Shown here: positions 929-55,703 of the stretch, one piece after another
How the letters are laid out: the number at the start of each line of letters is the position of its first letter
Position numbering within the stretch: position 1 is the first letter of the stretch
Assembly (NCBI GenBank): GCA_050302415.1
Contig: JBNLBB010000002.1
Location: 1-57,954, forward strand
Source of the DNA: Gammaproteobacteria bacterium
GTDB lineage: Bacteria; Pseudomonadota; Gammaproteobacteria; JBNLBB01
Length of the DNA: 57,954 nt
Reading direction: 5' to 3'
Made by a program: the position numbers and the translations under genes
Notes under the pieces: model-generated
The model's input: only the letters and a program-made list of their open reading frames with translations
Told to the model about the DNA's origin: nothing
Databases searched by the model: none

Positions 929-1094
929 GTTCCATCTCCTATGTGCAGCAGCACGGTAACACTCTCCATGCGTCCCTAAAGCACGGACGAAGAGTTTGCA
1001 GCGACAAACTTTGTTTTTAAGTATTTATACAACAACGACAAGTTTCCACCCAGGGTGGCATTTTTTTATTTACCTGGGTCAATAACTGTCCAGA

Positions 1095-2419: not shown

Positions 2420-5050
2420 TTACCTGGTACCCAACTGACCGGCCACCCAGGATGCAACACCGTCCAGAGCAGCACCCAACGCGCCGACATCTGAGCCACC
2501 TCCCTGGGCCATATCGGGTCTGCCACCCCCTTTGCCACCAACCTGCTCGGCTACGTGCTTCATCAAGGCCCCGGCCTTCACCTGCGCAGTGGCGTCCTCG
2601 GTTACGCCGGCCACCAGGGATACCTTGGACCCTTCCACCGCCGCAAGAATGACCACTGCCGACTTGAGCTTCTGTTTCAATTGGTCAACGGTTTCACGCA
2701 AAACCTTGGCATCCGCCCCTTCCAGGCGCGCGGCGACCACCTTGATGCCGCTGATGTCGATGGCGCCGGAGACCAGATCGTTGCCCTGGGAACTCGCCAG
2801 CTTGCCCTGCAGGCGCGCCAGTTGCTTTTCGAGCTCCCGGTTTTTCTCCAACAGTCCCTGTACCTTGTCTTCCAAGAGGTCACGACCTCCCTTCAGCTGT
2901 TGACCCAGGCGTTCCAGAATCTGCTCGCCTTCATGAATTCGGCGCAAAGCGCTGAGGCCGGCAACGGCCTCTATCCGGCGCACGCCTGCCGCTACGCCGG
3001 TTTCGGAGGTGATGCGAAACACACCAATATCACCGGCCCGTGAGACGTGCGTGCCTCCGCACAACTCGACAGAAAATTCACCCACGGCGAGCACCCGGAC
3101 TTCACTGCCATACTTTTCGCCGAATAGGGCCATCGCTCCGGCCGCAATCGCGTCGTCATAGCCCATTACGCGGGCGCTCACTTCGGCATTCCGGCGTATT
3201 TCACGGTTGACTATGGACTCAACCTCTTCGATCTGGGCCCGGGTCATTGGCTCGAAATGCGAAAAATCGAAGCGCAAGTGGTCACTATCGACCAGAGAGC
3301 CCTTCTGCTGAACATGTTTGCCAAGCACTGAGCGCAGTGCGGCGTGCAGCAGGTGGGTCGCCGTATGATTGCAGGCGGTTTCGCGCCGTTCGCTCTCATT
3401 GACGATGGCGCTCACCGACTGCCCCTTGGACAGGCTGCCGGTAATCAGGCGACCGATATGCACAACCGTTCCCGATGCCTGCTTCTGGGTATCCCGCACT
3501 TCAAATCGGGCATCGCCGGCTGAAATCATCCCGCGGTCACCCACCTGACCACCGGATTCCGCGTAAAACGGTGTTTCATTCAGAACCACAATCCCCTCGT
3601 CGCCGGCCGACAGGATATCGACCTGTCCACCGGCTACCGCCAGGGCAGAAACCTTTGCCTCAGATTGCGTCCGGTCATACCCGACGAATGCGGTCTTTTC
3701 CGTGAGCCCCAGATTGTCTGTCAGATCCACGCTGAACCGGCTGGCGGCCCGAGCCCGATCGCGCTGCTCCTCCATATGGCGTTGGAAACCATCCATATCC
3801 AGCTGCATCCCGCGTTCGCGCGCTACATCCCCGGTCAGGTCGATGGGGAACCCGTAGGTATCATAGAGTTTGAAGGCCACGTCTCCGGGTATGGTCCGAT
3901 CCTTGGCCTCGCCCATGGTCTGCTCCAGAATCCGCATCCCCTGTTCCAGGGTTTCGGCAAAGCGCTCCTCCTCCAGTTTCAGGACCTGAGCCACCTGGCC
4001 CTGGGCGGCGGCCAGTTCAGGATAGGCCTGCCCCATCTCGGCAACCAGTGCCGAAACCAGAGTGTGGAAAAATGGTTGGGTCACGCCCAGCTTGTAGCCA
4101 TGACGGATTGCCCGACGAATGATTCGTCGCAGAACATAACCCCGGCCCTCATTGGAGGGCAACACACCGTCGGTGATCAAAAATGAGCAGGCCCGAATGT
4201 GGTCGGCAATCACCCGCAGGGAACTGGCGGTCAGATCGCTGGACCCGGTCGCTTTCGCCGCCGCGGCTATCAAATTCTGGAACAGGTCAATTTCGTAGTT
4301 GCTGTGGACATGCTGCAGGACGGCTGCCAGGCGCTCCAATCCCATACCGGTATCCACCGACGGCTTGGGCAGTGGGTCCATGCGCCCATCGGCAAAACGG
4401 TTGTACTGCATGAACACCAGATTCCAGATCTCGATGTAGCGGTCGCCATCCTCTTCGGGAGTTCCGGGAGGTCCACCGGCCACCGATGGGCCGTGGTCGT
4501 AGAAAATCTCCGAACAGGGTCCGCAGGGACCGGTATCGCCCATTGCCCAGAAATTGTCACTCTCGTAACGTTTGCCACCGGGTTTGTCGCCGATGCGCGT
4601 GAATCGCTCTGAATTGACACCAATCTCCTTCAGCCAGATATCCGCCGCTTCGTCATCTTCCGAGTAGACGGTCACCCACAGTTTTTCCGCCGGTAGTTTG
4701 ACCACCTCGGTAAGAAACTCCCAGGCGTACTGAATGGCTTCGCGCTTGAAATAGTCACCAAAACTGAAATTGCCCAGCATTTCGAAGAAAGTGTGGTGCC
4801 TTGCCGTGTAGCCAACGTTTTCCAGATCGTTGTGCTTGCCTCCGGCCCGCACACAGCGCTGTGAGGTCGTGGCCCGCGAGTAGGCCCGTTGGTCGTGACC
4901 CAGAAAGACGTCTTTGAACTGCACCATTCCTGCGTTGGTAAACAGCAGGGTGGGATCATTCCCGGGCACCAGTGGACTGCTGGCGACGATTTCGTGGCCA
5001 TTCTTCTGAAAATACTCGAGAAATGCGCGGCGAATTTCTGAACTGTTCAT
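2420..5050 (-). CDS. alaS: Alanine--tRNA ligase
   Basis: 876 aa. Shows class II AlaRS N-terminal motifs ([10 protein letters not shown]), the editing-domain zinc motif ELCGGTHV, and a C-terminal DHHA1-like region. Confidence 0.97.
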
Positions 5051-5116: not shown

Positions 5117-5599
5117 TCACCCGACCTCGTCCTCATCGCCGAGCACCCGGCAGATCAGATCGTGGGGAAACCCGCGGTATTCAAGAAATCTGGCCTGCTG
5201 CAGCCAGCTTTTCCGATCGTCGGGCATCCGGGCAAATTTTTTTCGTCGGACCGCGTGGGCCACCTCACGCCAGTCAATCTGGTCGGAGGTGAGCAACGCC
5301 TCTGTGGTCGCGGAGTCAACGCCCTTCTCGCGAAGCACCTGCCGTATCCGGACCGGTCCGTAGCCCCGCTGCACCAGACTGTCCCGCTGCAGGTCGGCGA
5401 ACCGCTCGTCATTCAGCAGGCGTTCTGCCTGCAGTGAGGTGACCACAGCGCTGACAATATCCCTGGAAAATCCGCGCGCACTGAGACGGGAGCCTAATTC
5501 CGCCGATGCATATTCCCGCCTGGCCAGCCAGCGCATGGCCTGGTCGCGCGCCAACTGGCGGTCAACCGCCTCTTCAGGCGTCAGCTGTTTCCACTTCAC
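5117..5599 (-). CDS. recX: RecA regulator RecX
   Basis: The conserved RecX core [23 protein letters not shown] begins just after the recA stop. The track ORF (to 5758) runs over the recA 3' end, so I trimmed it to GTG 5599. ATG 5536 is an alternative start. Confidence 0.8.
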
Positions 5600-21045: not shown

Positions 21046-22404
21046 CTACAACGTATCCATCGCGGCAGAAAGATCTTCCACTGCGATGACCTCCATCCCG
21101 ACGACAGGCTTTTTCGGCGCATTGGCAACCGGTACCACCGCCCGGGTAAATCCCTGCTTGACCGCTTCCCGCAGACGTTCCTGGCCATTGGCCACCGGAC
21201 GAATCTCACCGCCCAGTCCTATTTCGCCAAATGCTACCGTGGTCTGTGGCATGCAACGATCCCGCAGGCTCGACAGCACCGCCAGCAGTACCGGCAGATC
21301 CGCACCGGTTTCCGTAATACGCACGCCACCGACGATATTGACGAAGACATCCTGATCGTAAACTGGGACGCCGCCATGGCGATGCAATACCGCCAGCAGC
21401 ATGGCAAGCCGGTTCTGCTCCATTCCCAGGGTCACGCGGCGTGGATTGGCCAGATGGCTCTCCGCTACCAGCGCCTGGGCCTCGACCAGCATCGGTCGAC
21501 TCCCCTCGCGGGTCACCATGATCATGCTGCCCGGTACCGGTTTAGGGTGTCGTGACAGAAAAATGGCTGACGGGTTGTTCACTTCACGCAAACCGCTGTC
21601 CGTCATGGCAAATACGCCCAACTCGTTCAGCGCACCAAAGCGGTTTTTGACCGCGCGGATGATACGGTACCGTGAATCGGGATCCCCTTCGAAATAGAGC
21701 ACTGTATCGACCATATGCTCCAACACACGGGGGCCGGCCAATTGTCCCTCCTTGGTGACATGACCAATCAGAAACAGCGTGCAGCCGCGGGTTTTTGCAT
21801 AACGCACCAGAGCAGCGGCACATTCGCGGAGTTGGGAAACCGACCCCGGCGCGGACTGGAGCGCGGGTAGGTATGCTGTTTGGATGGAATCGATGACCAG
21901 CAAATCCGGCTTTTCCCGATCCGCCAGCGCCAACACTGCCTCGACATTGATTTCGGAAAAAAGCTTGACCGGCGCGCTGGAAACCCCCAGCCGCGCAGCA
22001 CGGCCACTGATCTGCTCCAGGGACTCCTCCCCCGATACATACAGTACATTCCGGTTTGACGCACAGTGGGCCAGCGATTGGAGCAGCAGGGTCGATTTGC
22101 CAATGCCTGGATCACCACCGATCAAGACGACCGATCCCGGCACCAGACCTCCCCCGAGCACCCGGTCCAGTTCCGACAGACCGCTGGAAGTCCGCTGCGC
22201 CAACTCTGGCGACACCTGATCCAGGCGCTGGACCTGCGCCCCTCCCTCCACCAGCACCAGACCGGCACCAGGGCCCGGTCCACGGCTTGGAGCTACGGAC
22301 TCAACCAGGGTATTCCAGGCCTGGCACTCAACGCACTGACCGGACCATTTGGAGGCCATTGCGCCGCATTCGGTGCAGGTGTAGTTGGTTTTGATTTTTG
22401 CCAT
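21046..22404 (-). CDS. radA: DNA repair protein RadA/Sms
   Basis: Starts MAKIKTNYTCTECGAMASKWSGQCVECQAWNTL (zinc finger). Walker A is GDPGIGKST, the KNRFG motif is present, and the C-terminal domain is Lon-protease-like. Confidence 0.96.
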   Translation of the reverse strand: MAKIKTNYTCTECGAMASKWSGQCVECQAWNTLVESVAPSRGPGPGAGLVLVEGGAQVQRLDQVSPELAQRTSSGLSELDRVLGGGLVPGSVVLIGGDPGIGKSTLLLQSLAHCASNRNVLYVSGEESLEQISGRAARLGVSSAPVKLFSEINVEAVLALADREKPDLLVIDSIQTAYLPALQSAPGSVSQLRECAAALVRYAKTRGCTLFLIGHVTKEGQLAGPRVLEHMVDTVLYFEGDPDSRYRIIRAVKNRFGALNELGVFAMTDSGLREVNNPSAIFLSRHPKPVPGSMIMVTREGSRPMLVEAQALVAESHLANPRRVTLGMEQNRLAMLLAVLHRHGGVPVYDQDVFVNIVGGVRITETGADLPVLLAVLSSLRDRCMPQTTVAFGEIGLGGEIRPVANGQERLREAVKQGFTRAVVPVANAPKKPVVGMEVIAVEDLSAAMDTL

Positions 22405-22486
22405 GCTGATGCTTTCCGCAAACGGCGGCCAGTCTAGCATGGGCGATGAAGCGCGCGCGGGGAGGGGCTTTTGTGGACGATAGAAA

Positions 22487-22684
22487 TGCAAAAGGCGGCA
22501 TCCTGCCGCCTTAAAATCCGTTGCTGCTGAATCCTAGAACTATCCCTGACGCCTTCCCTTGCTAATCCATTCCCTTTTCCCTCGGCGGTAATCATGGTCC
22601 GAAATTGTGGTTTTCGCAAACCGCCGACCTTTGATTGTTGTTACCCTCACTTTTTACCTCGACTAACTATTTATTATTACTATC
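22487..22684 (-). ncRNA. Candidate Csr/Rsm-type small RNA (GGA-rich, with promoter and intrinsic terminator)
   Basis: Nine GGA motifs lie in 22600-22501 on the minus strand. The terminal hairpin GGCGGC-AGGAU-GCCGCC (22494-22510) is followed by UUUU, and the promoter is at 22720-22691. There is no credible ORF. The 5' end is approximate. Confidence 0.5.
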
Positions 22685-22690
22685 AATAAG

Positions 22691-22720
22691 ATACTAGCCA
22701 CAAGCGAATATTGACTGCAA
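22691..22720 (-). promoter_or_regulatory. Putative sigma70 promoter of the candidate sRNA
   Basis: On the minus strand: TTGCAG (22720-22715), 18-nt spacer, TAGTAT (22696-22691). An inverted repeat GGACTACA-N24-TGTAGTCC (22735-22774) lies immediately upstream. Confidence 0.4.
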
Positions 22721-22955
22721 GCGCAATGGCAAAAGGACTACAAAACAATCAGCATTTTCCTACAAATGTAGTCCTCGTTCTGACAGACTCTTCGCCCGAA
22801 CCAAAAGGGCCTACGGCCGCTCTTGCCGTGAGGATACTGAATCTTTTCCGTAGGAGATAACCGGGCAAACTGCCACTGCTGGATTCGTCGCGGGTCGATG
22901 GGCAGCACATCTGCCCTACCGTGCAGTCAGGTAGTCTGAATGGATCAATATCCGC

Positions 22956-24341
22956 CTAGTGCTGGTAACTATCAGCCGTGTAATTTTCAAATCGGGTGAA
23001 TTCACCAAGAAATGTGAGACGGACTGTGTCAATGGGACCATTACGCTGCTTGGCGATAATGATCTCTGCCTTGCCCTTTTCCGCCGTCTCCTGGTTGTAC
23101 ACCTCGTCGCGGTAGATAAACACAATCAGGTCGGCATCCTGTTCGATGGCACCCGACTCACGCAGGTCGGACATGACTGGACGCTTGTCACTGCGCTGCT
23201 CCAGACTGCGATTGAGCTGGGAGAGCGCGATCACCGGGACTGTCAGTTCCTTCGCCAGGGCTTTCAGACCGCGGGAAATTTCCGAAATTTCTGCCACACG
23301 CCCTTCACTGTTTCCCGGAATCTGCATCAACTGCAGATAGTCCACCACAATCAAACCGAGTTCACCATGCTCGCGTACCAGGCGTCGCGCGCGTGCACGC
23401 AGGTCGGAGGGCGCCAGCGCCGGGCTGTCATCGATGAACAGTGGAGCCTCGGACAGCAGACTGATGGCCGAGGTGATCCGGGGCCAATCGTCTTCCTCCA
23501 TCTGACCGGTGCGCACCCGAGTCTGGTTGACCCTGCCAAGTGACGCGATCATACGCATCACCAACTGCTCACCCGGCATCTCCATACTGAAGACTGCCAC
23601 CGGCTTCTTGCTGGAAATGGCAGCACTTTCAGCGATATTCATGGCAAATGTCGTTTTCCCCATGGAAGGGCGACCGGCCACAATGATCAGGTCGGACTTC
23701 TGCAACCCCGAGGTAAGTCGGTCAAAATCAATGTAACCGGTGGCGAGTCCGGTGATCGGTTCGTTTTGGCGGTAGAGGGTGTCAATCTTGTCGACCGCCG
23801 CCTTGAGAAGATCATTGATCGGTGTGAAACCCTGGCGTCCCCGTGCACCCTGCTCCGCTATCTGGAACACCATCTGCTCGGCAGAATCGAGCAACTCCCG
23901 GGTCTCCCGACCGTCTGGGGCGTAACCGCTTTCCGCTATCTTGCCGCCGATACTGATCAGCTGGCGCAACACCGAACGTTCACGGACGATGTCGGCGTAG
24001 GTCTTGATGTTCGCGGCAGAAGGGGTGTTTTGAACCAGCTGGCCCAGATAGGTCATGCTGCCCGCATCGTCCAGCAATTCGCGGCTTTCCAGCCATTCCG
24101 ATACGGTGACGACGTCAGAAGGATTACCGCGCTCCAGCAGATCGTGGATGGCGCGAAAGATCAGGCGATGGTCCTGGCGGTAGAAATCTGCTTCCTGAAT
24201 GCGGTCAGAGACCCGGTACCAGGCCTCATTGTCAAGCATCAGACCACCGAGCACAGCCTGCTCGGCTTCGATGGAGTGGGGTGGAACCCGCAATCGCTCT
24301 GCAGCAGTTTTGAGTGCCAGCGATTTCACGGAATCCGACAT
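22956..24341 (-). CDS. dnaB: Replicative DNA helicase DnaB
   Basis: 461 aa. Contains PHSIEAEQAVLGG, Walker A GRPSMGKTT and the IVVDYLQLM region. Confidence 0.97.
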   Translation of the reverse strand: MSDSVKSLALKTAAERLRVPPHSIEAEQAVLGGLMLDNEAWYRVSDRIQEADFYRQDHRLIFRAIHDLLERGNPSDVVTVSEWLESRELLDDAGSMTYLGQLVQNTPSAANIKTYADIVRERSVLRQLISIGGKIAESGYAPDGRETRELLDSAEQMVFQIAEQGARGRQGFTPINDLLKAAVDKIDTLYRQNEPITGLATGYIDFDRLTSGLQKSDLIIVAGRPSMGKTTFAMNIAESAAISSKKPVAVFSMEMPGEQLVMRMIASLGRVNQTRVRTGQMEEDDWPRITSAISLLSEAPLFIDDSPALAPSDLRARARRLVREHGELGLIVVDYLQLMQIPGNSEGRVAEISEISRGLKALAKELTVPVIALSQLNRSLEQRSDKRPVMSDLRESGAIEQDADLIVFIYRDEVYNQETAEKGKAEIIIAKQRNGPIDTVRLTFLGEFTRFENYTADSYQH

Positions 24342-32081: not shown

Positions 32082-33269
32082 TCAGCCCAGCGGCACCACT
32101 TTCCACTCGCCATCCACCGGTAGCAATCGTCGATTGCAGCCCAGCGCCTCAGCCGAATTCTTTTCCCGGCCATGGACCAGCACGACCCTGATCCCCTGCC
32201 TGCGCAGATCGTTCACAGCCTGCCATCCGGATTCATCAGCCGGCCACTCCGCCATCACACCGTCACCGGTCACAGCTTGAATGGTGGTATCCAATGCGGA
32301 CAGGGTCTTCAGGTCAGTACTGAATCCTGTCGCCGGACGCGCCCGGCCGAACACTTCACCGATGGCATCATACCTACCCCCACGCGCCACTTCCTGGCCC
32401 CGGCCAGTGACATAGGCGGCAAACACGGCGCCGGTATGGTAGCGATAGCCGCGCAATTCTGCGAGATCGATGAATATTTCCAGATTCCGATCAGTTGCCA
32501 GGGAACCGACTATCGCTTCCAAATTGTCGATCGCCAGCTGCGCCTCGGGGCATATTGTACCCACGCGCGCGCGCGCCTGATCCAGTACTTCGGCGGTGCC
32601 GTGCAGATCGCTCAAGGTGGCGATCGCCGCACGCAGGTTGGCCCCGATATCGAGGTCGGCCAACAATTTTTGGATTTCCGGGTTCGCCTTGCGCTGAAGT
32701 GCCCCAAACAGCTGGACTTCTGCGCTGCCGCTCAATCCCGCCTGCTCACATAGTGCCCGGAAAATGCCCACATGTCCCAGATCAAGGTGGATATGGACAA
32801 CATGGATTTCCCGCAACAGCGCCAGCATCAGCGAGATCACTTCCGCATCGGCGGAAGGCTCGGGATTGCCATAGAGTTCGGCACCCAATTGGATGGGGGA
32901 GCGGCTGCCACCCATGTCGTCCGGGCGGGTGCGCACTACCGAGCCCATGTAGCACAGTCGGGAAGGCAAATCACTGCGCAGACGGTGCGCATCGATACGG
33001 GCAACCTGGGGCGTCATGTCGGCCCGCACTCCAAGCATCCTGCCGTCCCGCTGGTCCACCAGCTTGAAGGTCAGCAGATCGAGATCCTCTCCGGTTCCCA
33101 CGAGCAGGGACTCCAGATATTCCAGCATCGGCGGAATGACTAGGTCATAGCCCCAGACATCGAAGAGATTGAGCAGGCGACGACGCAACTGCTCCAGGCG
33201 CCTGGCTGGGGCCGGCAGGATCTCTTCGATGCCCTCGGGCAGCATCCACGGTGTATCGACAGGTTTCAT
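32082..33269 (-). CDS. hisZ: ATP phosphoribosyltransferase regulatory subunit HisZ
   Basis: 395 aa. It is a HisRS-like class II core without an anticodon domain (LPEGIEEILP...GVRADMTPQVARI). Confidence 0.88.
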   Translation of the reverse strand: MKPVDTPWMLPEGIEEILPAPARRLEQLRRRLLNLFDVWGYDLVIPPMLEYLESLLVGTGEDLDLLTFKLVDQRDGRMLGVRADMTPQVARIDAHRLRSDLPSRLCYMGSVVRTRPDDMGGSRSPIQLGAELYGNPEPSADAEVISLMLALLREIHVVHIHLDLGHVGIFRALCEQAGLSGSAEVQLFGALQRKANPEIQKLLADLDIGANLRAAIATLSDLHGTAEVLDQARARVGTICPEAQLAIDNLEAIVGSLATDRNLEIFIDLAELRGYRYHTGAVFAAYVTGRGQEVARGGRYDAIGEVFGRARPATGFSTDLKTLSALDTTIQAVTGDGVMAEWPADESGWQAVNDLRRQGIRVVLVHGREKNSAEALGCNRRLLPVDGEWKVVPLG

Positions 33270-37405: not shown

Positions 37406-38365
37406 TCAACTTCGCCCTTTGGCCAAAAAATCAGCCACAAGTTCCCAAAGTTCGGACTCGCCCCCCGGGACTGTCGGGTCGATCCAGCGTGCATCGGTAT
37501 CGGCCCTGAGCCACGTCAACTGGCGCTTGGCCAATTGTCGGGTGGCAATAATACCCCTATCGCGCATCTCCGGAAATGACAATTTTCCATCCAGATAGGC
37601 CCAAACCTGACGATAGCCCACAGCGCGCATGGAAGGGAGGTCGGCATGCAAATCTCCGCGATTCCTCAAGCAGGTGACTTCGTCCAGAAATCCTGCCTCG
37701 AGCATGGCATCGAATCGCAAGGCGATGCGCTGATGCAACAGGGATCGATCGGGCGGCGAGACCACCAGCGGCAGGAGTTGATACCCCAACCGTTCGCCAT
37801 CACCCACCCTCTGCAGTTCGCTGAGCGGCCGTCCCGTGAGTTCGAAGACTTCCAATGCCCGCTGGATTCGCTGCGGATCGTTGGGATGAATCCGGGCTGC
37901 CGCAGGCGGATCGATCTGCGCCAATCGTGCGTGCATCTGTGCCGACCCCAGGCGCTGTAGATCGGACTCCAGGCGGGCTCGCAGCGGCGCATCGGCCTGA
38001 GGCAGCTGGGCCAATCCACCGCGCAGTGCCCGGTAGTAGAGCATAGTCCCGCCGACCAGCAACGGTATGCGCCCGCGGTTCCGGATCGCCTCCATTTCGC
38101 GCAACGCATCGGCGCAGAAACGCCCGGCTGAGTAGGTTTCAGCCGGATCGAGAATATTGACCAGCCGGTGGGGATAACGCTGCAACAGGTCCGGCGAAGG
38201 TTTTGCCGTGCCGATATCCATCTCCCGATAGACCAGGGCGGAATCCACACTGATCAGATCCACCGGATAACGGTCCGCCAGCCGCATGGCCCAGTCGGTC
38301 TTGCCTGCGGCCGTCGGGCCCATGAGCAGAATCGCCGGCGGCAGATTTTCCGGGTTGCTCCGCAC
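37406..38365 (-). CDS. miaA: tRNA dimethylallyltransferase MiaA
   Basis: P-loop [10 protein letters not shown] followed by [24 protein letters not shown] 38365 (319 aa, 8 nt after the mutL stop) matches the E. coli N-terminal spacing. ATG 38449 is an alternative start, and the track start 38731 is spurious. Confidence 0.9.
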
Positions 38366-41553: not shown

Positions 41554-41714
41554 CGGCAGCTTGCGGATCTCCTGTCTCCAGTGCTTTTATGGCACAGGAA
41601 TCAGGGAAAATCAACTTTTTTACTTAAATATCTGCTAGATAGGAAACTATTCTATAAACCACCTAAGGTGTGGGATTTATTCTGTTACCCGGAGGGTCCG
41701 CTTCCGCGGGTCGG

Positions 41715-42167
41715 TCACTCAAGGGCAATGCCGTCCAGCGGCCGCTGGCCTGTGAGCTGCGCAATCCGTCCGCCGCTCCCGCGGTACTCCAACACCACTT
41801 CAAGGTTGGCCTTCGGCAGCTCACCCGTGCCATGTTCGGGCCACTCAACCAGCACCAATCCCTGCCCGTTCAGAAACTCCCGCAGGCCGATATAGGCCAG
41901 TTCCTCCGGATCCTTGAGGCGATAGAGATCGAGATGAGCCACCGGCAACACTGGCAGCTCGTAGGTCTCGATCAGGGTATAGGTGGGACTCTTCACTGGC
42001 CCGGCATGCCCAAGCGCCTGCATGAGGCCGCGCGCCAGCGTGGTTTTTCCCGCACCCAGATCGCCTTTCAGATAAATGATGTCACCCGGCTGAATCCAGC
42101 GCCCGACCGCGGCACCAAGCGCTTCGGTCGCCTCGCTACTGCCCAGGTCCAAGATCATTTTGTTCAC
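41715..42167 (-). CDS. tsaE: tRNA t6A37 biosynthesis ATPase TsaE
   Basis: 150 aa with P-loop GDLGAGKTT, followed by SPTYTL and HLDLYRL motifs. Confidence 0.93.
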   Translation of the reverse strand: MNKMILDLGSSEATEALGAAVGRWIQPGDIIYLKGDLGAGKTTLARGLMQALGHAGPVKSPTYTLIETYELPVLPVAHLDLYRLKDPEELAYIGLREFLNGQGLVLVEWPEHGTGELPKANLEVVLEYRGSGGRIAQLTGQRPLDGIALE

Positions 42168-43744
42168 CCGTTGGTCCTGTTTCCGTCAATGGATGGATTG
42201 AGCAGGCGGCGGATTTCCGGCAGCAGATCACCGGCCAGCATACCCCGCGGCTGCTCACCTGCTGCCGCATCACCGGCGGCCGCATGAACACAGACACCGA
42301 GCCGCGTGGCATCCGTCACCGCCATACCCTGGGCGATCAGTGATCCGATCAACCCGGCCAGCAGGTCACCCATACCCCCGCTGGCCATACCCGCATTGCC
42401 CGCTTTGCAAAGATAGGTAGCGCTGCCGTCCGCCACCAGCGTACCAGCACCCTTCAGCACCGCAACGGCCCCGGTGGCATCGTGCAATGCCTCTACGGCC
42501 ACAAACCGGTCCTGTTCCACTTCCCGCACCGAGCAGTCCAGCAGGCGGGACGCTTCCCCCGGATGTGGGGTGATCACACTGTTGGCGGGCACAGTCAATT
42601 GGTGTTTGGCGATCAGGTTCAGAGCATCGGCGTCCAGCACCAGCGACTTGCCGCAGGCCAGTACCTGTTCCAAAAGAGCGAGCGCCCACGCGCCCTGCCC
42701 CAACCCCGGACCGGCCACCACCGTGTCGGCGGCAGCCACCCAAGGGGCAAGCGCCTCCGCTGCGGAGACCCCGCTCACCATCAACTCGGGCCGCCACAGA
42801 TTCAGGTGGCCCGCGTGGGACTCGTGAGTCGCAATTCGCACCAGGCCGGCACCGGCGCGTGCCGCGGCAGCGGCCGCCAGCAGGGGCGCGCCACTCATGC
42901 CCGGCGCGCCACCGACCACCAGCACCTGACCGCAGGTTCCCTTGTGGGCTGAAGGAGGCCGCAGCGGCAACTGCTGCAACTCAGCTTGGAGATCCAGGGC
43001 ACGTGACGAGATGTCGACGTGGGTATAGACGCCCGGAGGGACTTCCAGATCAAAAAAATCGATCGCGCCACAATGATCCACAGCCTCGCCGGTCAGCATG
43101 CCCTGCTTGAGCCCGATAAAACTGACCGTTCTGGCTGCCCGCACCGCAATTCCCATGACCTGCCCGGTGTCCGCATGAATACCCGATGGAATATCCAGCG
43201 CGACAATGGGCAACCCGGAATCATTCATGGTCTCCACGGCTGCGCTCCACTCCCCGGAGAGCGGGCGGTCCAGCCCGGTACCCACCAGCGCGTCCACCAG
43301 AACGGTGTCCGGCTGGGGCTCAAAATCGGACAACGCCAGTATCTGTCCATCGGCCGCCAACCACTCGTCGCGGGCACGCGCCGCGTCGTCACGCAACAGC
43401 TCCGGACTGGCCACGGCAATCACACGGCATCCCAATCCGGCATCCCGGGCAATTCGCGCGACCACATAGCCGTCGCCGGCATTGTTCCCCACTCCGCAAA
43501 AAATGGTCAGCTCGCGGCTGTGGGGAAAGCGCTCACGAATGACGGAATATGCCGCCGCGCCGGCCCGCGACATCAGGGTAAAGCCGGGAATACCGAACTC
43601 CTCTATCGCCCGGCGATCCAGCTCGCGCACCTGGGCCGCCCGGTAGAGCCCGGTCGGCAGTCGCGTGGTGTCGGTTACTGTAGCCATCCCGCCATTTTCT
43701 ACCACAAACGCAACCGGTAGCGCGTTAGAATTGAAGACTGTCAC
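42164..43744 (-). CDS. nnr: Bifunctional NAD(P)H-hydrate repair enzyme Nnr (epimerase/dehydratase, YjeF family)
   Basis: About 510-526 aa with an N-terminal YjeF_N domain (FCGVGNNAGDGYV) and a C-terminal carbohydrate-kinase-like domain. Start is GTG 43744 or ATG 43687. Confidence 0.9.
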   Translation of the reverse strand: MTVFNSNALPVAFVVENGGMATVTDTTRLPTGLYRAAQVRELDRRAIEEFGIPGFTLMSRAGAAAYSVIRERFPHSRELTIFCGVGNNAGDGYVVARIARDAGLGCRVIAVASPELLRDDAARARDEWLAADGQILALSDFEPQPDTVLVDALVGTGLDRPLSGEWSAAVETMNDSGLPIVALDIPSGIHADTGQVMGIAVRAARTVSFIGLKQGMLTGEAVDHCGAIDFFDLEVPPGVYTHVDISSRALDLQAELQQLPLRPPSAHKGTCGQVLVVGGAPGMSGAPLLAAAAAARAGAGLVRIATHESHAGHLNLWRPELMVSGVSAAEALAPWVAAADTVVAGPGLGQGAWALALLEQVLACGKSLVLDADALNLIAKHQLTVPANSVITPHPGEASRLLDCSVREVEQDRFVAVEALHDATGAVAVLKGAGTLVADGSATYLCKAGNAGMASGGMGDLLAGLIGSLIAQGMAVTDATRLGVCVHAAAGDAAAGEQPRGMLAGDLLPEIRRLLNPSIDGNRTNG

Positions 43745-49191: not shown

Positions 49192-49784
49192 AGCTCTCGC
49201 CTGCCTTCGAAGGCATGCGACAGCGTCCGCCCGTCAATGTATTCCAGTTCGCCACCCAGCGGTACGCCATGGGCAATTCGGGTTGCCCGAATTCCCCGTT
49301 CCCGCGCCATTTCGCCAACATAGTGCGCCGTCGCCTCACCTTCCACGGTGGGGTTCGTGGCCAGGATCACTTCACTCACACCACCGGCGTCCAGTCGCTG
49401 GGCCAACAGCTCCAGCCCCAGTTCGCGGGGCCCGATGCCATCCAGGGGCGACAGGTGCCCCATCAGCACAAAATATCGTCCGCGGTACGCCTGCGCAGAC
49501 TCCATGGCCATCACGTCGGCTGGGGATTCGACCACGCATATCTGATCACCCGTCCGTTTCGGGTTCGCGCAGATGGTGCACTCCGCCTCCTCGGTGAGAA
49601 TCCGGCAGTGGCGGCAATACCCCACGTGATCCGCTGCATCCAGCAGCGCAGCGGCCAGTTTGCGCGCCCCTTCGCGGTCGCGCTCCAGCAGCTGAAAGGC
49701 AATGCGCTGTCCCGATTTGGGCCCGACGCCGGGCAGACAGCGCAGTGCCGAGACAAGCTGATCGATGAGGGGCGACAGCGACAT
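49188..49784 (-). CDS. recR: Recombination protein RecR
   Basis: 198 aa with an HhH motif, the Cys4 finger [16 protein letters not shown] and a Toprim domain. Confidence 0.96.
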
Positions 49785-50110
49785 CAGAATGGCAGTTTGA
49801 AACCGGGAGGCAGGCTCATGCCGGCGGTCATCTGTGCATAGCTCTCCTTGGTGGTCTGCTCAATGCGATGCACGGCATCGTTGATGGCTGCGGCGATCAG
49901 GTCCTCGACCATTTCCACATCGTCGTCAGCGAGCAGCTGTGGATCAAGCACCACGCGGCGCACCTCATGCTTGCCGGTCATGGTGACCTTGACCATTCCG
50001 GCCCCCGATTCGCCGGTTACTTCCATGCGCGCCAGCTCTTCCTGTGCCCGCTGCATGTTCTCCTGCATCTTCTGGGCCTGTTTCATCAGGTTGCCCAATC
50101 CGCCTTTCAT
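49784..50110 (-). CDS. ybaB: Nucleoid-associated protein YbaB/EbfC
   Basis: 108 aa, [26 protein letters not shown]. It lies between dnaX and recR. Confidence 0.95.
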
Positions 50111-52497: not shown

Positions 52498-53367
52498 CTA
52501 CTCTGCGGCACTGATGCTGTGATAAAGCGCCTTGGTCTCCGCAGCCGGTTCAATGGCCAGGCGGCTGGACAGTATCTGCTGGCAGCGCCGGTATATGCGC
52601 ACCGCCTCGCCGTGCTCCCCCATACTGATGTGAGCGCGCATCAAGGCACGATAGAAGCCCTCGGCCAGTGGATCGACCTCCAACCCATAGAGGGCAGCAT
52701 CTACGGCCAGGTCCGTCAGCCGAAGCATCAGTGCCTGGTCGACGATCCGTTGCAGGGCCCGGGAAAACCCTACATGCAACCGCTCCCGCGCACCCAACAC
52801 CCAGTACCAGTCGTCTTCGGGCAGCAGGATGCCGCTGTAGGTGGCCCGCAGCCGCGCCCAAAGTGCCTTCAGGTTGCCACCATCGTCGGGGGGATTTCGG
52901 GATTGATTGATCAACTGTTCCAGGGTGCGCACGTCCACCCACACCAACTCGGAATTGATCTGCATCCGCCCCTCCCGGAACTGCACGCACTCCTTGCCGA
53001 TCAGTTTGCGCAGGCGCGACAGGGTGGTCTTCAGGGTTGCCGGCTGATTCTCCGGCGGGATATCCGGCCACAGCGACTCCCCCACCTCTTCGGCATTCAG
53101 CGACTGCCCGCGATGGATGGCGAGCAGTTTCAGCAGATTCAGCGGTTGCTTGGGCACTTTCTTGCCCAATTCCAGCGGTTTCCCATTAGTCTCTATGCGC
53201 AGCCCGCCGAGCGTCCTGATCCTGACCGGCCATGGCCACTGTGGCTCCAGGCAGGCGGCGCCCAGTGGTTTCAGGCCAATGCGTTGAATGACCGTCATCA
53301 CGAAGTCCGTCTCGATGTCGTGGCTCAATGCCAAAGAAAAATCCGGGAAAGGCTGGGATGGCTCCAA
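52498..53367 (-). CDS. SARP-type module: OmpR/PhoB-like winged helix + BTAD domain. It is either a separate protein or the frameshifted C-terminus of the upstream STAND gene.
   Basis: WPWPVRIRTLGGLRIETNGKPL...TLKTTLSRLRKLIG is a wHTH, and a helical BTAD region follows (YRALMRAHISMGEHGEAVRIYRRCQQIL). The track start 53367 is TTG, and the first ATG is 53298. This frame stays open upstream of 53367. Confidence 0.7.
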   Translation of the reverse strand: MEPSQPFPDFSLALSHDIETDFVMTVIQRIGLKPLGAACLEPQWPWPVRIRTLGGLRIETNGKPLELGKKVPKQPLNLLKLLAIHRGQSLNAEEVGESLWPDIPPENQPATLKTTLSRLRKLIGKECVQFREGRMQINSELVWVDVRTLEQLINQSRNPPDDGGNLKALWARLRATYSGILLPEDDWYWVLGARERLHVGFSRALQRIVDQALMLRLTDLAVDAALYGLEVDPLAEGFYRALMRAHISMGEHGEAVRIYRRCQQILSSRLAIEPAAETKALYHSISAAE

Positions 53368-55703
53368 TGTACGGTGTTGAAGTAACGCTGTGAACGCCCC
53401 AGCAACAGCGCTGAGCGCAGTATATCCAGCGCCCCGGCCTCATCGCGCTGATCGATGCGGATCTGGGCCAGCGTCAGCTCCAGCATGTAGCGCAGCATGT
53501 GGAATCCGCACTCCCGGGCGAGGTCAATACCGTCCTGCGTCGCTTTCACACCCTCCTCAAACTGTCCACATTGGGCCAGGGACATGCCCACTCCCCACTG
53601 GTGTATGCACTGTTGGAACGGCGTCTCGGAAAGCTCGATGATCTCCCCTGCCTGTACCATGCGTTCCCGTGCTTCCCTGTAGTGTCCCTGGTTGATATCC
53701 AGCCACCCCCGCATGAACAGGTAGTTGGCATAAAAGATACTCTGCTCTTCCTTGATCGACGCCGGCATACGCTCGACGTAAGTGGCCGCAAGGCGCCAGT
53801 CACCCGCCAAAAACGCGGAAAAGGCTCCCTGGATGAGCAGCGTGACGTCCATGAGGTGAATACCGAATCTTGCGCCATAGGCCAGCCCCTCCTCTGCGGC
53901 CCGCAGCCCCTCTTCCGGTGATCTCACCACCCACGAGAACATGGCCTTGGTGCTGAACCACACCATGTTGGTGAAAGGATCAAAGGCCTGCCGGCTGGCG
54001 ATGGGGGATAGGCGCTCATAGAGCAGTTCAGCTGCAGAGAGGTCGCCCATATAAATATGCTTGCGCATCAAATGGGCTCCAATCAGCAGTTTGTTCTCCG
54101 CGCTTGGCGCGAAGATCAGCAAGCGCTGCAGTTTCTTTTGAAGCTTCGGCAACAGCTGATTGGTAGGTTGGTGCAGCAGCAAGGCCGTAAACAGTATGAC
54201 TTCGCAGCGCAATCGGGTTTTCAGGGAGGCTTTGAGCGGATTGCCGGTGCGCAGCCGCCCCATTTCATCAATCCAGTAGCTCAATTCTGTAAATCCGCCG
54301 AATCTGAAAATGATGGTCTCCACCACTCCGGCCCAAGCCAGGAACTGTCCCTCTACCTGTCGTGAAGCCTGAAACAGGTGGTAGGCAATCTCCAACGCGG
54401 ATTGGGCGGCCACGGTGTCGGTCTGGCGCAGGCACATGCCATACCAGTAACTCAACCACGGATGCTCCTCCCGTGTTTCGTCGGCAACATTGTCCAGCCA
54501 CTGCAGCAATGTCTGCCACCGCCCCTTTTCAAACAGCGATTGCGCCTGGGTTTCAATGGCACGCGCATAGGGTAGCGGGTCTTCGATCTGTGCAAAGCAT
54601 TGGACTGCCAGGTCCGATTCGCCCTGCTTTTGAAAGTGTGTTCCCGCCAGTTGGAGGACATGATCGATTTCCGCACCATCCAACCGGAGATCAGCGACAC
54701 TCAGCAGATACTCCCTGAACAGGGGGTGATACCGATACATCACCGGCTTGCCCGCCGACTTTTCCAAGAAGTAATTGTTCCGGTAGAGCTGATCGATCAG
54801 GTCGGCGGTTTGCGGATCGTGCAGCAGTTCGCTGGCCAGCGCGACGCTGAACCCCGGCGGCTGCGCTGTCAGCAGCAGCAGGTGCTGGACCCGGGTGTCC
54901 AGTCCATCAAACAGGGAGGTGGCGTAGTATTCAAAAATCTGCCCAATGGTGTCGTCCGAATCGTAATCGGGCCCGTCTTCGGTTTCAGTCAATCCGGACT
55001 TGAGCATCAGCGATAGTGCCGTCACCCAGCCACGGGAGATCTCGAGCAGGCGCCGGGGCAGTCTCCGGTCCTCTTCCCAGGGATGATCGGGCAACAGCAA
55101 TCGCCCCAGGGGAATCACCTCGTCTTCGGTAAATGCCAGATCGTGTGCTTCGATTCGCTCAATCCCCCGCGTCACCCGCACCTTTGCCCAGTGTGGCGTA
55201 GGTGCTATGCGACCGATCACCACGGCGTCGATATCGGTGCGCAGGTTGGCGTACAATTCCGCGAGCATGGTGCCCACGGGTGAGTTGGTGGGCAGCATGT
55301 GCAGATCATCGAACACGATGGCGGACTTTTCCGGGAGCAGATTACCCAACAGATCGGCGTATTCCCGTGCGAATCGCTGCGGATTCCCCTGATACTGTGC
55401 GGTGAATAGGGGCAGAATCGATGCCGCCTTGCCCACTTTCTCCTGCACGCATTCGCGCAGATAGAAAAACAATGCGGCCGGATCACTGTCCTCTTCATCA
55501 ATGCGATACCAAACCACCGCGTCGTCACGGACTGACAGGCAATCACGCATCAAGGTGGTTTTGCCATAGCCGGCAGGCGCATCCACCCAGATTACGGATC
55601 CCGGGTTCCGCTGGGAAATTCTGCGCAGCAGCCGCTCCCTTTTCAGAATCGAACGGTGCTGTGGCGGAGCCGCCTTTCGGGTCGGAAACTGAGATCTGAC
55701 CAT
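53325..55703 (-). CDS. MalT-like STAND ATPase with a C-terminal TPR-like sensor region, lacking its own DNA-binding domain
   Basis: 792 aa. Walker A is DAPAGYGKTT, Walker B is AIVFDDLH, and a MalT-type GWVTAL motif is present. About 400 aa of helical repeats follow, and there is no LuxR HTH at the end. Confidence 0.8.
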   Translation of the reverse strand: MVRSQFPTRKAAPPQHRSILKRERLLRRISQRNPGSVIWVDAPAGYGKTTLMRDCLSVRDDAVVWYRIDEEDSDPAALFFYLRECVQEKVGKAASILPLFTAQYQGNPQRFAREYADLLGNLLPEKSAIVFDDLHMLPTNSPVGTMLAELYANLRTDIDAVVIGRIAPTPHWAKVRVTRGIERIEAHDLAFTEDEVIPLGRLLLPDHPWEEDRRLPRRLLEISRGWVTALSLMLKSGLTETEDGPDYDSDDTIGQIFEYYATSLFDGLDTRVQHLLLLTAQPPGFSVALASELLHDPQTADLIDQLYRNNYFLEKSAGKPVMYRYHPLFREYLLSVADLRLDGAEIDHVLQLAGTHFQKQGESDLAVQCFAQIEDPLPYARAIETQAQSLFEKGRWQTLLQWLDNVADETREEHPWLSYWYGMCLRQTDTVAAQSALEIAYHLFQASRQVEGQFLAWAGVVETIIFRFGGFTELSYWIDEMGRLRTGNPLKASLKTRLRCEVILFTALLLHQPTNQLLPKLQKKLQRLLIFAPSAENKLLIGAHLMRKHIYMGDLSAAELLYERLSPIASRQAFDPFTNMVWFSTKAMFSWVVRSPEEGLRAAEEGLAYGARFGIHLMDVTLLIQGAFSAFLAGDWRLAATYVERMPASIKEEQSIFYANYLFMRGWLDINQGHYREARERMVQAGEIIELSETPFQQCIHQWGVGMSLAQCGQFEEGVKATQDGIDLARECGFHMLRYMLELTLAQIRIDQRDEAGALDILRSALLLGRSQRYFNTVHWSHPSLSRIFLWH

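Follow-up and report, generated by a model that had tools for sequence, protein, structure and literature searches.

Small RNAs that sequester CsrA have been recognised from a set of sequence features (Kulkarni et al., 2006; PMC1488887), namely an intergenic location, a density of AGGA/ARGGA motifs, a Rho-independent terminator, GGAs placed repeatedly in loops or free regions, and a conserved upstream site of the TGTAAG-N6-CTTACA class. The repeated element of CsrB is CAGGA(U/A/C)G, and sites that lie 10-63 nt apart are bridged by CsrA dimers (PMC7652899). Upstream of E. coli csrB there is an 18-nt inverted repeat, TGTGAGAGATCTCTTACA, centred at -183, with TGTAGGAGA 5 bp downstream of it (PMC4682653).

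We propose that a gene of this kind is, in all probability, present in the window, by which we mean the whole 57,954-nt stretch of a gammaproteobacterial contig that was analysed: a Csr/Rsm-type CsrA sponge RNA gene, predicted to be under a GacA/UvrY-like activator, in the spacer between dnaB and radA. Measured against the sequence features of Kulkarni et al. (2006), the element has an overall count of four of the five, the exposure of the GGAs being seen when the terminator is enforced and the upstream site being present only partly and in a non-canonical form. The gene would be an independent one on the minus strand. It would give an RNA of some 100 nt (about 22584 to 22486), started from a weak TTGCGA-17-CATGAT promoter and activated, as at csrB/rsmZ, by a GacA/UvrY-type regulator whose predicted site lies about 150-200 nt upstream, beyond an AT-rich linker. 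The eight A(N)GGA sites of the RNA are 5-16 nt apart, the last of them being the CAGGAUG of the terminator loop, and would bind CsrA dimers and keep them off their mRNA targets.

Layout of the dnaB-radA spacer

The spacer is 551 nt long, with the dnaB stop at 22956 and the radA ATG at 22404, and the element lies within it with no conserved ORF (Table 1). The true start of radA is ATG 22404, giving MAKIKTNYTCTECG, and the public gene call (P0001) lengthens the protein to a TTG at 22491 (481 aa), across the terminator, which is likely a start-site miscall that the RNA-gene reading corrects.

Table 1. Features of the window discussed in the text, with pairwise identity to the closest relative, contig L085.
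Feature	Position	Strand	Basis or remark	Identity to L085
dnaB	22956-24341		upstream flank of spacer	
Upstream activating region, four GacA/UvrY half-site-like elements	22735..22785	-	sequence and offsets relative to L137 and L206	75% (40-nt inverted-repeat block)
AT-rich linker, activating region to promoter	22620..22734	-	composition; low identity to L085	39%
Predicted weak sigma-70-type promoter	22591..22619	-	arrangement recurs in L085, L206, L137	34% (promoter region)
Predicted non-coding RNA, about 100 nt	22486..22584	-	putative 5' end; 3' end after terminator U-run	61% (RNA body)
Array of eight GGA sites	22501..22580	-	all in A(N)GGA context	
Intrinsic terminator	22484..22512	-	terminator scan and conservation	91% (block); 19-mer 19/19
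ATGCTAGACTG, likely extended -10 (TGnTAGACT) of radA promoter	22430..22440	-	conserved; putative promoter function	
csrA, 65 aa	731..928	-	translation and phmmer	

The sequence of the minus strand from 22484 to 22600 is ...GGACCAUGAUUACCGCCGAGGGAAAAGGGAAUGGAUUAGCAAGGGAAGGCGUCAGGGAUAGUUCUAGGAUUCAGCAGCAACGGAUUUUAAGGCGGCAGGAUGCCGCCUUUUGCAUUU. An initial annotation of this DNA had listed nine GGA triplets on that strand (plus-strand TCC at 22501, 22517, 22532, 22543, 22555, 22566, 22571, 22578 and 22598) together with eight heptamer contexts, and on re-reading all of these positions and contexts were correct; its expectation of about 1.5 GGAs per 100 nt has to be raised, the minus-strand background here being 2.2 per 100 nt. 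The GGA at 22598 is probably upstream of the transcription start, within the promoter spacer. The other eight have their first bases at 22580, 22573, 22568, 22557, 22545, 22534, 22519 and 22503 and are spread over all three reading frames, and every one of them (8/8) is in an A(N)GGA context, with six AGGA/ARGGA and two other ANGGA motifs in 98 nt, which is the high concentration of motifs described for CsrA-sequestering RNAs.

Is this number of GGAs unusual? The coding stretches 3874-3973 and 33027-33126 contain 10 and 9, respectively, and at least nine GGAs were reached somewhere in 53 of 200 shuffles of the whole window, so that, judged over the whole window, the raw count carries no significance by itself. 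Against local composition, nine GGAs have P = 0.0006 (mononucleotide shuffles) or 0.003 (dinucleotide shuffles), and eight A(N)GGA motifs were never obtained in 5000 local shuffles (expected 1.7-2.3). Across 1.2 Mb of strand length, made up of the window and 84 related loci, the eight A(N)GGA per 100 nt of this element were the only non-repeat outlier, the next value being six and the sole higher density belonging to a simple (GAAGGAG)n repeat in L059.

The hairpin GGCGGC-AGGAU-GCCGCC with its U-run, which had been proposed as an intrinsic terminator, is present and is flagged by our scan as terminator-like. In full it reads AAGGCGGC-AGGAU-GCCGCCUU (22512-22492) and then UUUUGCAUUU, with a stem of 9 bp that includes six G-C pairs, a loop that falls in a CAGGAUG motif, and a T-run that is short at the RNA level (UUUU, then GCAUUU); the Rho-independent terminator of the known sponge RNAs thus has its counterpart here. 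The RNA as a whole has little structure (z = -1.1). When folding is left unconstrained, the minimum-energy structure is in competition with the terminator and has two of the GGAs paired, and in unconstrained folds of 98-206-nt versions the stability was no greater than that of shuffles and the GGAs were not preferentially unpaired. Once the terminator is imposed, each of the eight GGAs has an unpaired probability of at least 0.5 (mean 0.68, versus 0.47 for other bases), and the same preference was found in all six RNAs folded in this way, those of the window and of the loci L085, L206, L137, L089 and L139 described below. Only the terminator GGA of the window RNA is in a confident hairpin loop. 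A consensus fold of window and L085 contains a single small hairpin besides the terminator, the base of which shows one compensatory base-pair change.

A sponge needs a partner, and the initial annotation had supposed this to be the CsrA encoded in the window. The csrA gene is indeed there and is canonical: its product gives phmmer E-values of 4e-29 to 7e-29 against P. aeruginosa RsmA (1VPZ) and E. coli CsrA (1Y00) and is near-identical to both over residues 1-56, and for this reason what we take as the cognate CsrA should share their A(N)GGA specificity.

Conservation in related loci

A DnaB search gave one clearly closer protein, P0122 (80% identity), on contig L085, whose RadA is 76% identical. 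The dnaB-radA spacer of L085 has the same element, with eight GGAs (8/8 in A(N)GGA context), an identical terminator 19-mer and the GGACTACA-N24-TGTAGTCC repeat. The blocks AAAGGGAATGGAT and GCAACGGA and the 19-nt terminator are identical in the two sequences, and the spacings between GGAs are 7, 5, 11, 12, 11, 15 and 16 nt in the window and 10, 5, 13, 11, 12, 15 and 15 nt in L085, with 1-nt indels inside the RNA body. The comparison of this spacer among relatives, which had been specified beforehand, therefore found both the GGA positions and the palindrome kept.

Two more distant contigs extend this picture. L206 (DnaB 73%) has dnaB-alr and then the element, and ends before radA; its RNA has seven GGAs and the hairpins GGGUUAA-GGA-UUAACCC and GGGCA-ACUGGAUA-UGCCC (z = -4.1). 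L137 (DnaB 68%) has the order dnaB-alr-[element]-radA and an RNA with eight GGAs, several of them in clean hairpin loops such as GGGAUG-AGGA-CAUCCC (z = -4.9). There are thus at least four positional orthologues (window, L085, L206 and L137), all metagenomic. In a metagenome scan for the terminator 19-mer, most of the matches listed were an unrelated 48-nt tandem repeat, and three loci among them, L137, L089 and L139, had the same architecture as the window. L089 (43% G+C) has a TGTAAG-N6-CTCAAA box and eight GGAs in a different gene context. L139, which is convergent with fdxA-mutS, has the canonical box TGTAAGACATCTCTTACA, and its alignment to the Rfam PrrB_RsmZ model covers the model from end to end at 33.4 bits, below the gathering threshold of 44 (E = 3.8e-4 when 44 kb are searched, 1.6e-6 in a local search).

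The terminator is kept in all five of these other loci. L085, L137, L089 and L139 have its 19-mer, AGGCGGCAGGATGCCGCCT, without a change, although for L137, L089 and L139, which were found through it, this identity is not independent evidence. In L206 the terminator is a variant, GAAGGCGGCC-AGGA-GGCCGCCUUC (GGCGGCC-AGGA-GGCCGCC), in which the stem differs and yet the loop again contains GGA, as it does in L137, so that the GGA of the loop has been kept despite the change of stem. In a five-way MAFFT alignment only the terminator was aligned, and a covariance model drawn from it would mainly describe the terminator that had served to find the sequences.

How widespread is the element? The best RadA matches among those listed are about 70% identical and belong to Thiohalomonadaceae, Sulfurivermis and Thioalkalivibrio, and among these matches the source organism is without a close sequenced relative. 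We compared 80 GTDB species representatives listed by a RadA search, with identities of 57-70% over the best aligned segment, a list from which the closest genomes may be missing. A GGA-dense element upstream of radA was found in none of these 80 loci, the apparent peaks being coding sequence. At about 70% RadA identity the gene order differs, being either dnaB-alr-NUDIX-small ORF-radA or dnaB abutting radA, and the Thiohalomonadaceae loci have alr, NUDIX and a 70-aa ORF in place of the element. Thioalkalivibrio sulfidiphilus and Thiohalobacter thiocyanaticus have dnaB-alr, with neither radA nor the GGA element downstream. The closest RadA match, P0002, was uninformative, its contig (L081) being a chimeric duplication that starts inside radA. 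A search for repeats of the window spacer elsewhere found none, and a literature search returned no publication that links rsmZ with a radA locus and none that prints the terminator sequence.

The relatives also bear on where transcription would start. The initial annotation had proposed TTGCAG-18-TAGTAT as the promoter; both hexamers are there (22720-22715 and 22696-22691), but they share only 7 of 12 positions with the consensus, are not conserved in L085 and went unreported by the promoter scan, which returned no site in the linker 22620..22734, and we rejected this candidate as the main promoter. An arrangement of the form TTGC(G/A)N-16/17-CAnnAT, on the other hand, recurs 7-10 nt ahead of the first GGA. 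In the window it consists of a -35 TTGCGA (22619-22614), a 17-nt spacer and a -10 CATGAT (22596-22591), and the corresponding sequences are TTGCAT-17-CACTAT in L085, TTGCAA-16-CATTAT in L206 and TTGTGA-17-GAAACT in L137. These hexamers are weak, with three or four of six matches, as would be expected of an activator-dependent promoter. The start site would then lie near 22584, and this conserved promoter position predicts an RNA that is about 100 nt long and has eight GGAs, shorter than the 150-200 nt with nine GGAs originally suggested. Between the terminator and radA there is a further conserved motif resembling an extended -10, ATGCTAGACTG in the window and L085, TGCTAGTAT in L137 and ATGCTAGCGT in L206, and its conservation suggests that radA has a promoter of its own; we consider it likely to be the extended -10 of radA and the downstream boundary of the RNA unit.

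Upstream, the GGACTACA-N24-TGTAGTCC repeat reported earlier is present (22774-22767 and 22742-22735) and is, as had been said, non-canonical, the window containing no TGTAAG-N6-CTTACA box; its position relative to the RNA moves from -50 to -90 to about -150 to -200 with the revised start site. The repeat corresponds to the second and fourth of four elements, TGTCAG (22785-22780), ACTACA (22772-22767), TGTAGG (22764-22759) and TGTAGT(CC) (22742-22735), and the best match to a GacA/UvrY box in the window is TGTCAG-N7-ACTACA, followed by TGTAGG and TGTAGT. Counted from the terminator stem, these half-sites are at -275 (TGTCAG), -262 (ACTACA), -254 (TGTAGG) and -232 (TGTAGT). L137, with TGTAAGAATTTTCCTACA and then TGTAGG (TGTAAG-N6-CCTACA + TGTAGG), has TGTAAG at -288, CCTACA at -276, TGTAGG at -266 and TGTCAT at -244, and L206, with TGTAAT-N6-CTGAAA followed by two copies of TGTAGG, has TGTAAT at -291, CTGAAA at about -279, and TGTAGG at -269 and -246. 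The relative offsets of the three loci agree within 1-2 nt, and the arrangement in L137 mirrors that of E. coli csrB. L085 is without the first half-site, and its 40-nt repeat block is nevertheless far closer to that of the window than is the flanking spacer (39-47%). Because the offsets are shared with near-canonical boxes and the layout is that of csrB, the repeat can be understood as elements two and four of a degenerate UvrY/GacA-type region. The repeat is not a dnaB terminator, given the conservation of its loop sequence and the absence of a T-run after it in L085.

The linker between this region and the promoter is 65% A+T, against 41% for the window, and a match to the IHF consensus in the linker was found in L085 only. 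We infer that transcription depends on a GacA/UvrY-type response regulator at the four-element site; none of the 20 window ORFs scanned is a gacA/uvrY.

Alternative explanations and implications

The conservation in L085, L206, L137 and L139, taken with the canonical csrA, supports the sponge reading of the initial annotation, as far as sequence can. Could the element instead act in cis, as a leader or attenuator of radA, with CsrA on the loop GGA deciding between termination and read-through and with no titration at all? In the window, L085 and L137 it is co-oriented with radA and directly upstream of it, and L206 agrees as far as its contig goes; the U-run of the terminator is short, and at pgaA termination is known to be under CsrA-dependent control (PMC7652899). 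However, the TGnTAG motif before radA in all four loci points to a separate radA promoter, L089 and L139 have the terminator and GGA array at sites away from radA, and eight sites are more than an attenuator requires, and we consider such a leader quite unlikely. That the RNA is real but has another partner, acting as decoy of some other RNA-binding protein or base-pairing through its Shine-Dalgarno-like AGGGA/AAGGA, would fit the location of most window GGAs in single-stranded, purine-rich stretches rather than in the hexaloop hairpins that CsrA prefers, and also the want of any match to an Rfam Csr/Rsm family. Against it stand the A(N)GGA context of every site and the loop CAGGAUG, which is the CsrB repeat (PMC7652899), the GGAs in hairpin loops in L206, L137 and L139, and the GacA/UvrY-type upstream site, which is specific to Csr/Rsm RNA genes (PMC4682653, PMC1488887), all of which make this possibility very unlikely.

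Less probable again are the two explanations that dispense with an RNA. A non-functional spacer, GGA-rich by chance or composition or left over from alr/NUDIX, might be suspected from the coding stretches and whole-window shuffles that match the raw count, and from the alr, NUDIX and 70-aa ORF that relatives hold between dnaB and radA. It is largely refuted: L085 has kept the GGAs in number, context and spacing amid DNA that is only 34-39% identical, local shuffles gave P <= 0.003, and tblastn of the spacer found no relic of alr, NUDIX or the 70-aa ORF. A small protein is the least probable of all, although a 61-aa TTG ORF (22434-22619) and a 35-aa GTG ORF (from near 22650) both exist and the latter has a well-spaced GAGG (GAGGT, Shine-Dalgarno-like). 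The 61-aa ORF crosses the terminator, as had been remarked in the initial annotation, the start region of the 35-aa ORF is unconserved in L085, the GGAs fall in all three frames, and no stop-free stretch is conserved as a peptide in window, L085 and L206 (best BLOSUM62 raw score 42); this lack of a conserved peptide and the 1-nt indels relative to L085 exclude the small-ORF reading.

With a Csr/Rsm-type sponge RNA as the preferred explanation, two further questions arise. Did this RNA also acquire a role at its neighbour? CsrA on the terminator-loop CAGGAUG could in addition tune termination and thereby read-through into radA, and the GGA of that loop is kept in all six loci; we regard a dual function of this sort as unlikely, but if it were true, Csr status would be coupled to recombinational repair in the radA-linked lineage. 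The other question is whether the window, L085, L206 and L137 represent an undescribed Rsm family, absent from Rfam, with a four-element activator site and belonging to uncultured Gammaproteobacteria. We lean towards this view, which is more likely than the dual function. The sponge RNA itself would extend the Gac/Csr-type circuit to an uncultured gammaproteobacterial lineage in which current Rfam models do not detect it. Among the matches listed, Thioalkalivibrio, Thiohalomonadaceae and Sulfurivermis are the nearest named relatives of that lineage, with DnaB/RadA identities of about 70%. It would also predict a BarA/UvrY-like cascade in these organisms, and it offers handles with which further genes of this kind might be sought: adjacency to radA, the CAGGAUG of the terminator loop, and a four-element TGTnnG region that precedes the terminator by about 270-300 nt. 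The understanding of Csr systems as such is unchanged, and the regulator would be of an ordinary kind.

Comparison with described Csr/Rsm RNAs

At the gathering threshold, no Rfam Csr/Rsm model (CsrB, CsrC, RsmX, RsmY or RsmZ) matches the window, in which the Rfam matches are tRNAs and the SRP RNA. In the region 22350-23000 at E <= 10 there is again no Csr/Rsm match, only a terminator-driven DapZ and a spurious RT-15. PrrB_RsmZ (RF00166, gathering 44 bits) is reached neither by the window nor, at E <= 10, by that region, and the covariance models for CsrB and RsmY, which we take to be RF00018 and RF00195, and for CsrC (RF00084) and RsmX are likewise unmatched at gathering or at E <= 10. The element can therefore not be assigned to a named family.

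CsrB is about 370 nt long and has about 18-22 sites, whereas the window RNA would be about 100 nt with eight. The window inverted repeat also differs from that of csrB in its spacer of 7 nt rather than 6 and in its two mismatched half-sites. What the window RNA shares with CsrB/CsrC of E. coli and other enterobacteria is the sponge logic and the CsrB repeat CAGGA(U/A/C)G, found here in the terminator loop; its putative activating region also resembles that of csrB, an inverted repeat about 180 nt upstream with an extra TGTAGG a few bp downstream (PMC4682653).

[quoted passage not shown] RsmY/RsmX of Pseudomonas and RsmY/RsmZ of Legionella nonetheless resemble the predicted window RNA in being short sponges with ANGGA/AGGA motifs that are partly unpaired and with a palindromic upstream site of the GacA/LetA type (PMC7911923, PMC1488887).

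There is a likeness in layout to RsmZ/PrrB of Pseudomonas (RF00166), which has an RNA of about 100-130 nt with about eight GGAs and an intrinsic terminator, a GacA-type site far upstream (about -180), an AT-rich linker and a weak promoter. There are differences, in that the window RNA lies between dnaB and radA and not beside fdxA, its GGAs are mostly single-stranded whereas those of RsmZ are in the hairpin loops SL1-SL4, and its terminator loop contains GGA in place of the UcAa of the Rfam consensus. A link between the two is provided by L139, which has the terminator 19-mer of the window, the end-to-end alignment with the RsmZ model and the fdxA-mutS neighbourhood of Pseudomonas rsmZ. On these comparisons, the window RNA looks like a divergent, radA-linked relative of the RsmZ type.

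The radA start site and its upstream region

The public radA call in the window (P0001, 481 aa) starts at a TTG at 22491 on the minus strand, which lies within the terminator of the predicted sRNA, whereas an ATG at 22404 (minus) is favored by the lengths of RadA homologs (452-454 aa) and by the N-terminus MAKIKTNYTC that it would produce. On these sequence grounds we consider that the TTG is likely a start-site miscall (region 22404-22491, minus), one that conceals the sRNA gene. The radA call at L085, the locus of a relative, is over-extended likewise, with its start at 5462. Upstream of the ATG we found an element (see table) from which radA is probably transcribed, its sequence being that of a predicted extended -10 promoter; its counterpart at two other relatives' loci, L137 and L206, is TGCTAG. 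The closest RadA match, P0002, has an odd length (484 aa) and an inflated bit score because the 5′ half of radA is duplicated internally in its contig (L081, 1-900), a duplication that looks like an assembly artefact.

Coordinates of the promoter candidate, the csrA leader and the tandem repeat
Feature	Location	Strand	Description
ATGCTAGACTG	window 22430-22440	minus	~25 nt 5′ of radA ATG; kept in L085
csrA 5′ leader	window 929-985	minus	four GGA motifs, UAGGGACGCAUGGAGAG...AUAGGAGAUGGAACAUG
48-nt tandem repeat	L197 4625-5101; also L090, L099, L132, L146, L200

Repeats, hairpins and ORFs without a Pfam family

Among the metagenome matches listed for the 19-mer of the sRNA terminator hairpin, most come from an unrelated 48-nt tandem repeat, whose unit (GTAGAGGAGCCATCYTGGCTCCTCAGGCGGCAGGATGCCGCCTCTAC) contains two GC-rich hairpins and occurs in arrays of up to ~10 units. 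In a Burkholderiales MAG (L059, 1591-1775), a simple repeat, (GAAGGAG/GAAGGAT)n, carries 18 GGAs per 100 nt; its inverted complement, CTTCCTTC..., lies ~40 nt downstream, directly 5′ of an alr-like ORF, and the two could form a long hairpin. A long perfect hairpin, made of (TTCAAAA)n/(TTTTGAA)n repeats around GGAGGA, is also present 3′ of alr in Thioalkalivibrio sulfidiphilus (L209, 6481-6576); a terminator and a repeat element are both possible readings of it.

Within the window, a 792-aa ORF (53325-55703, minus) had no Pfam family at E <= 1e-5, nor did the ORFs at 49215-49841, 41670-42287 and 37666-38250, which may not be real genes.

The csrA leader

One of the four GGA motifs in the csrA leader falls inside the Shine-Dalgarno sequence. 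Autoregulation by CsrA has been described for E. coli and, by analogy with that precedent, the motifs in this leader would fit a similar control of csrA.
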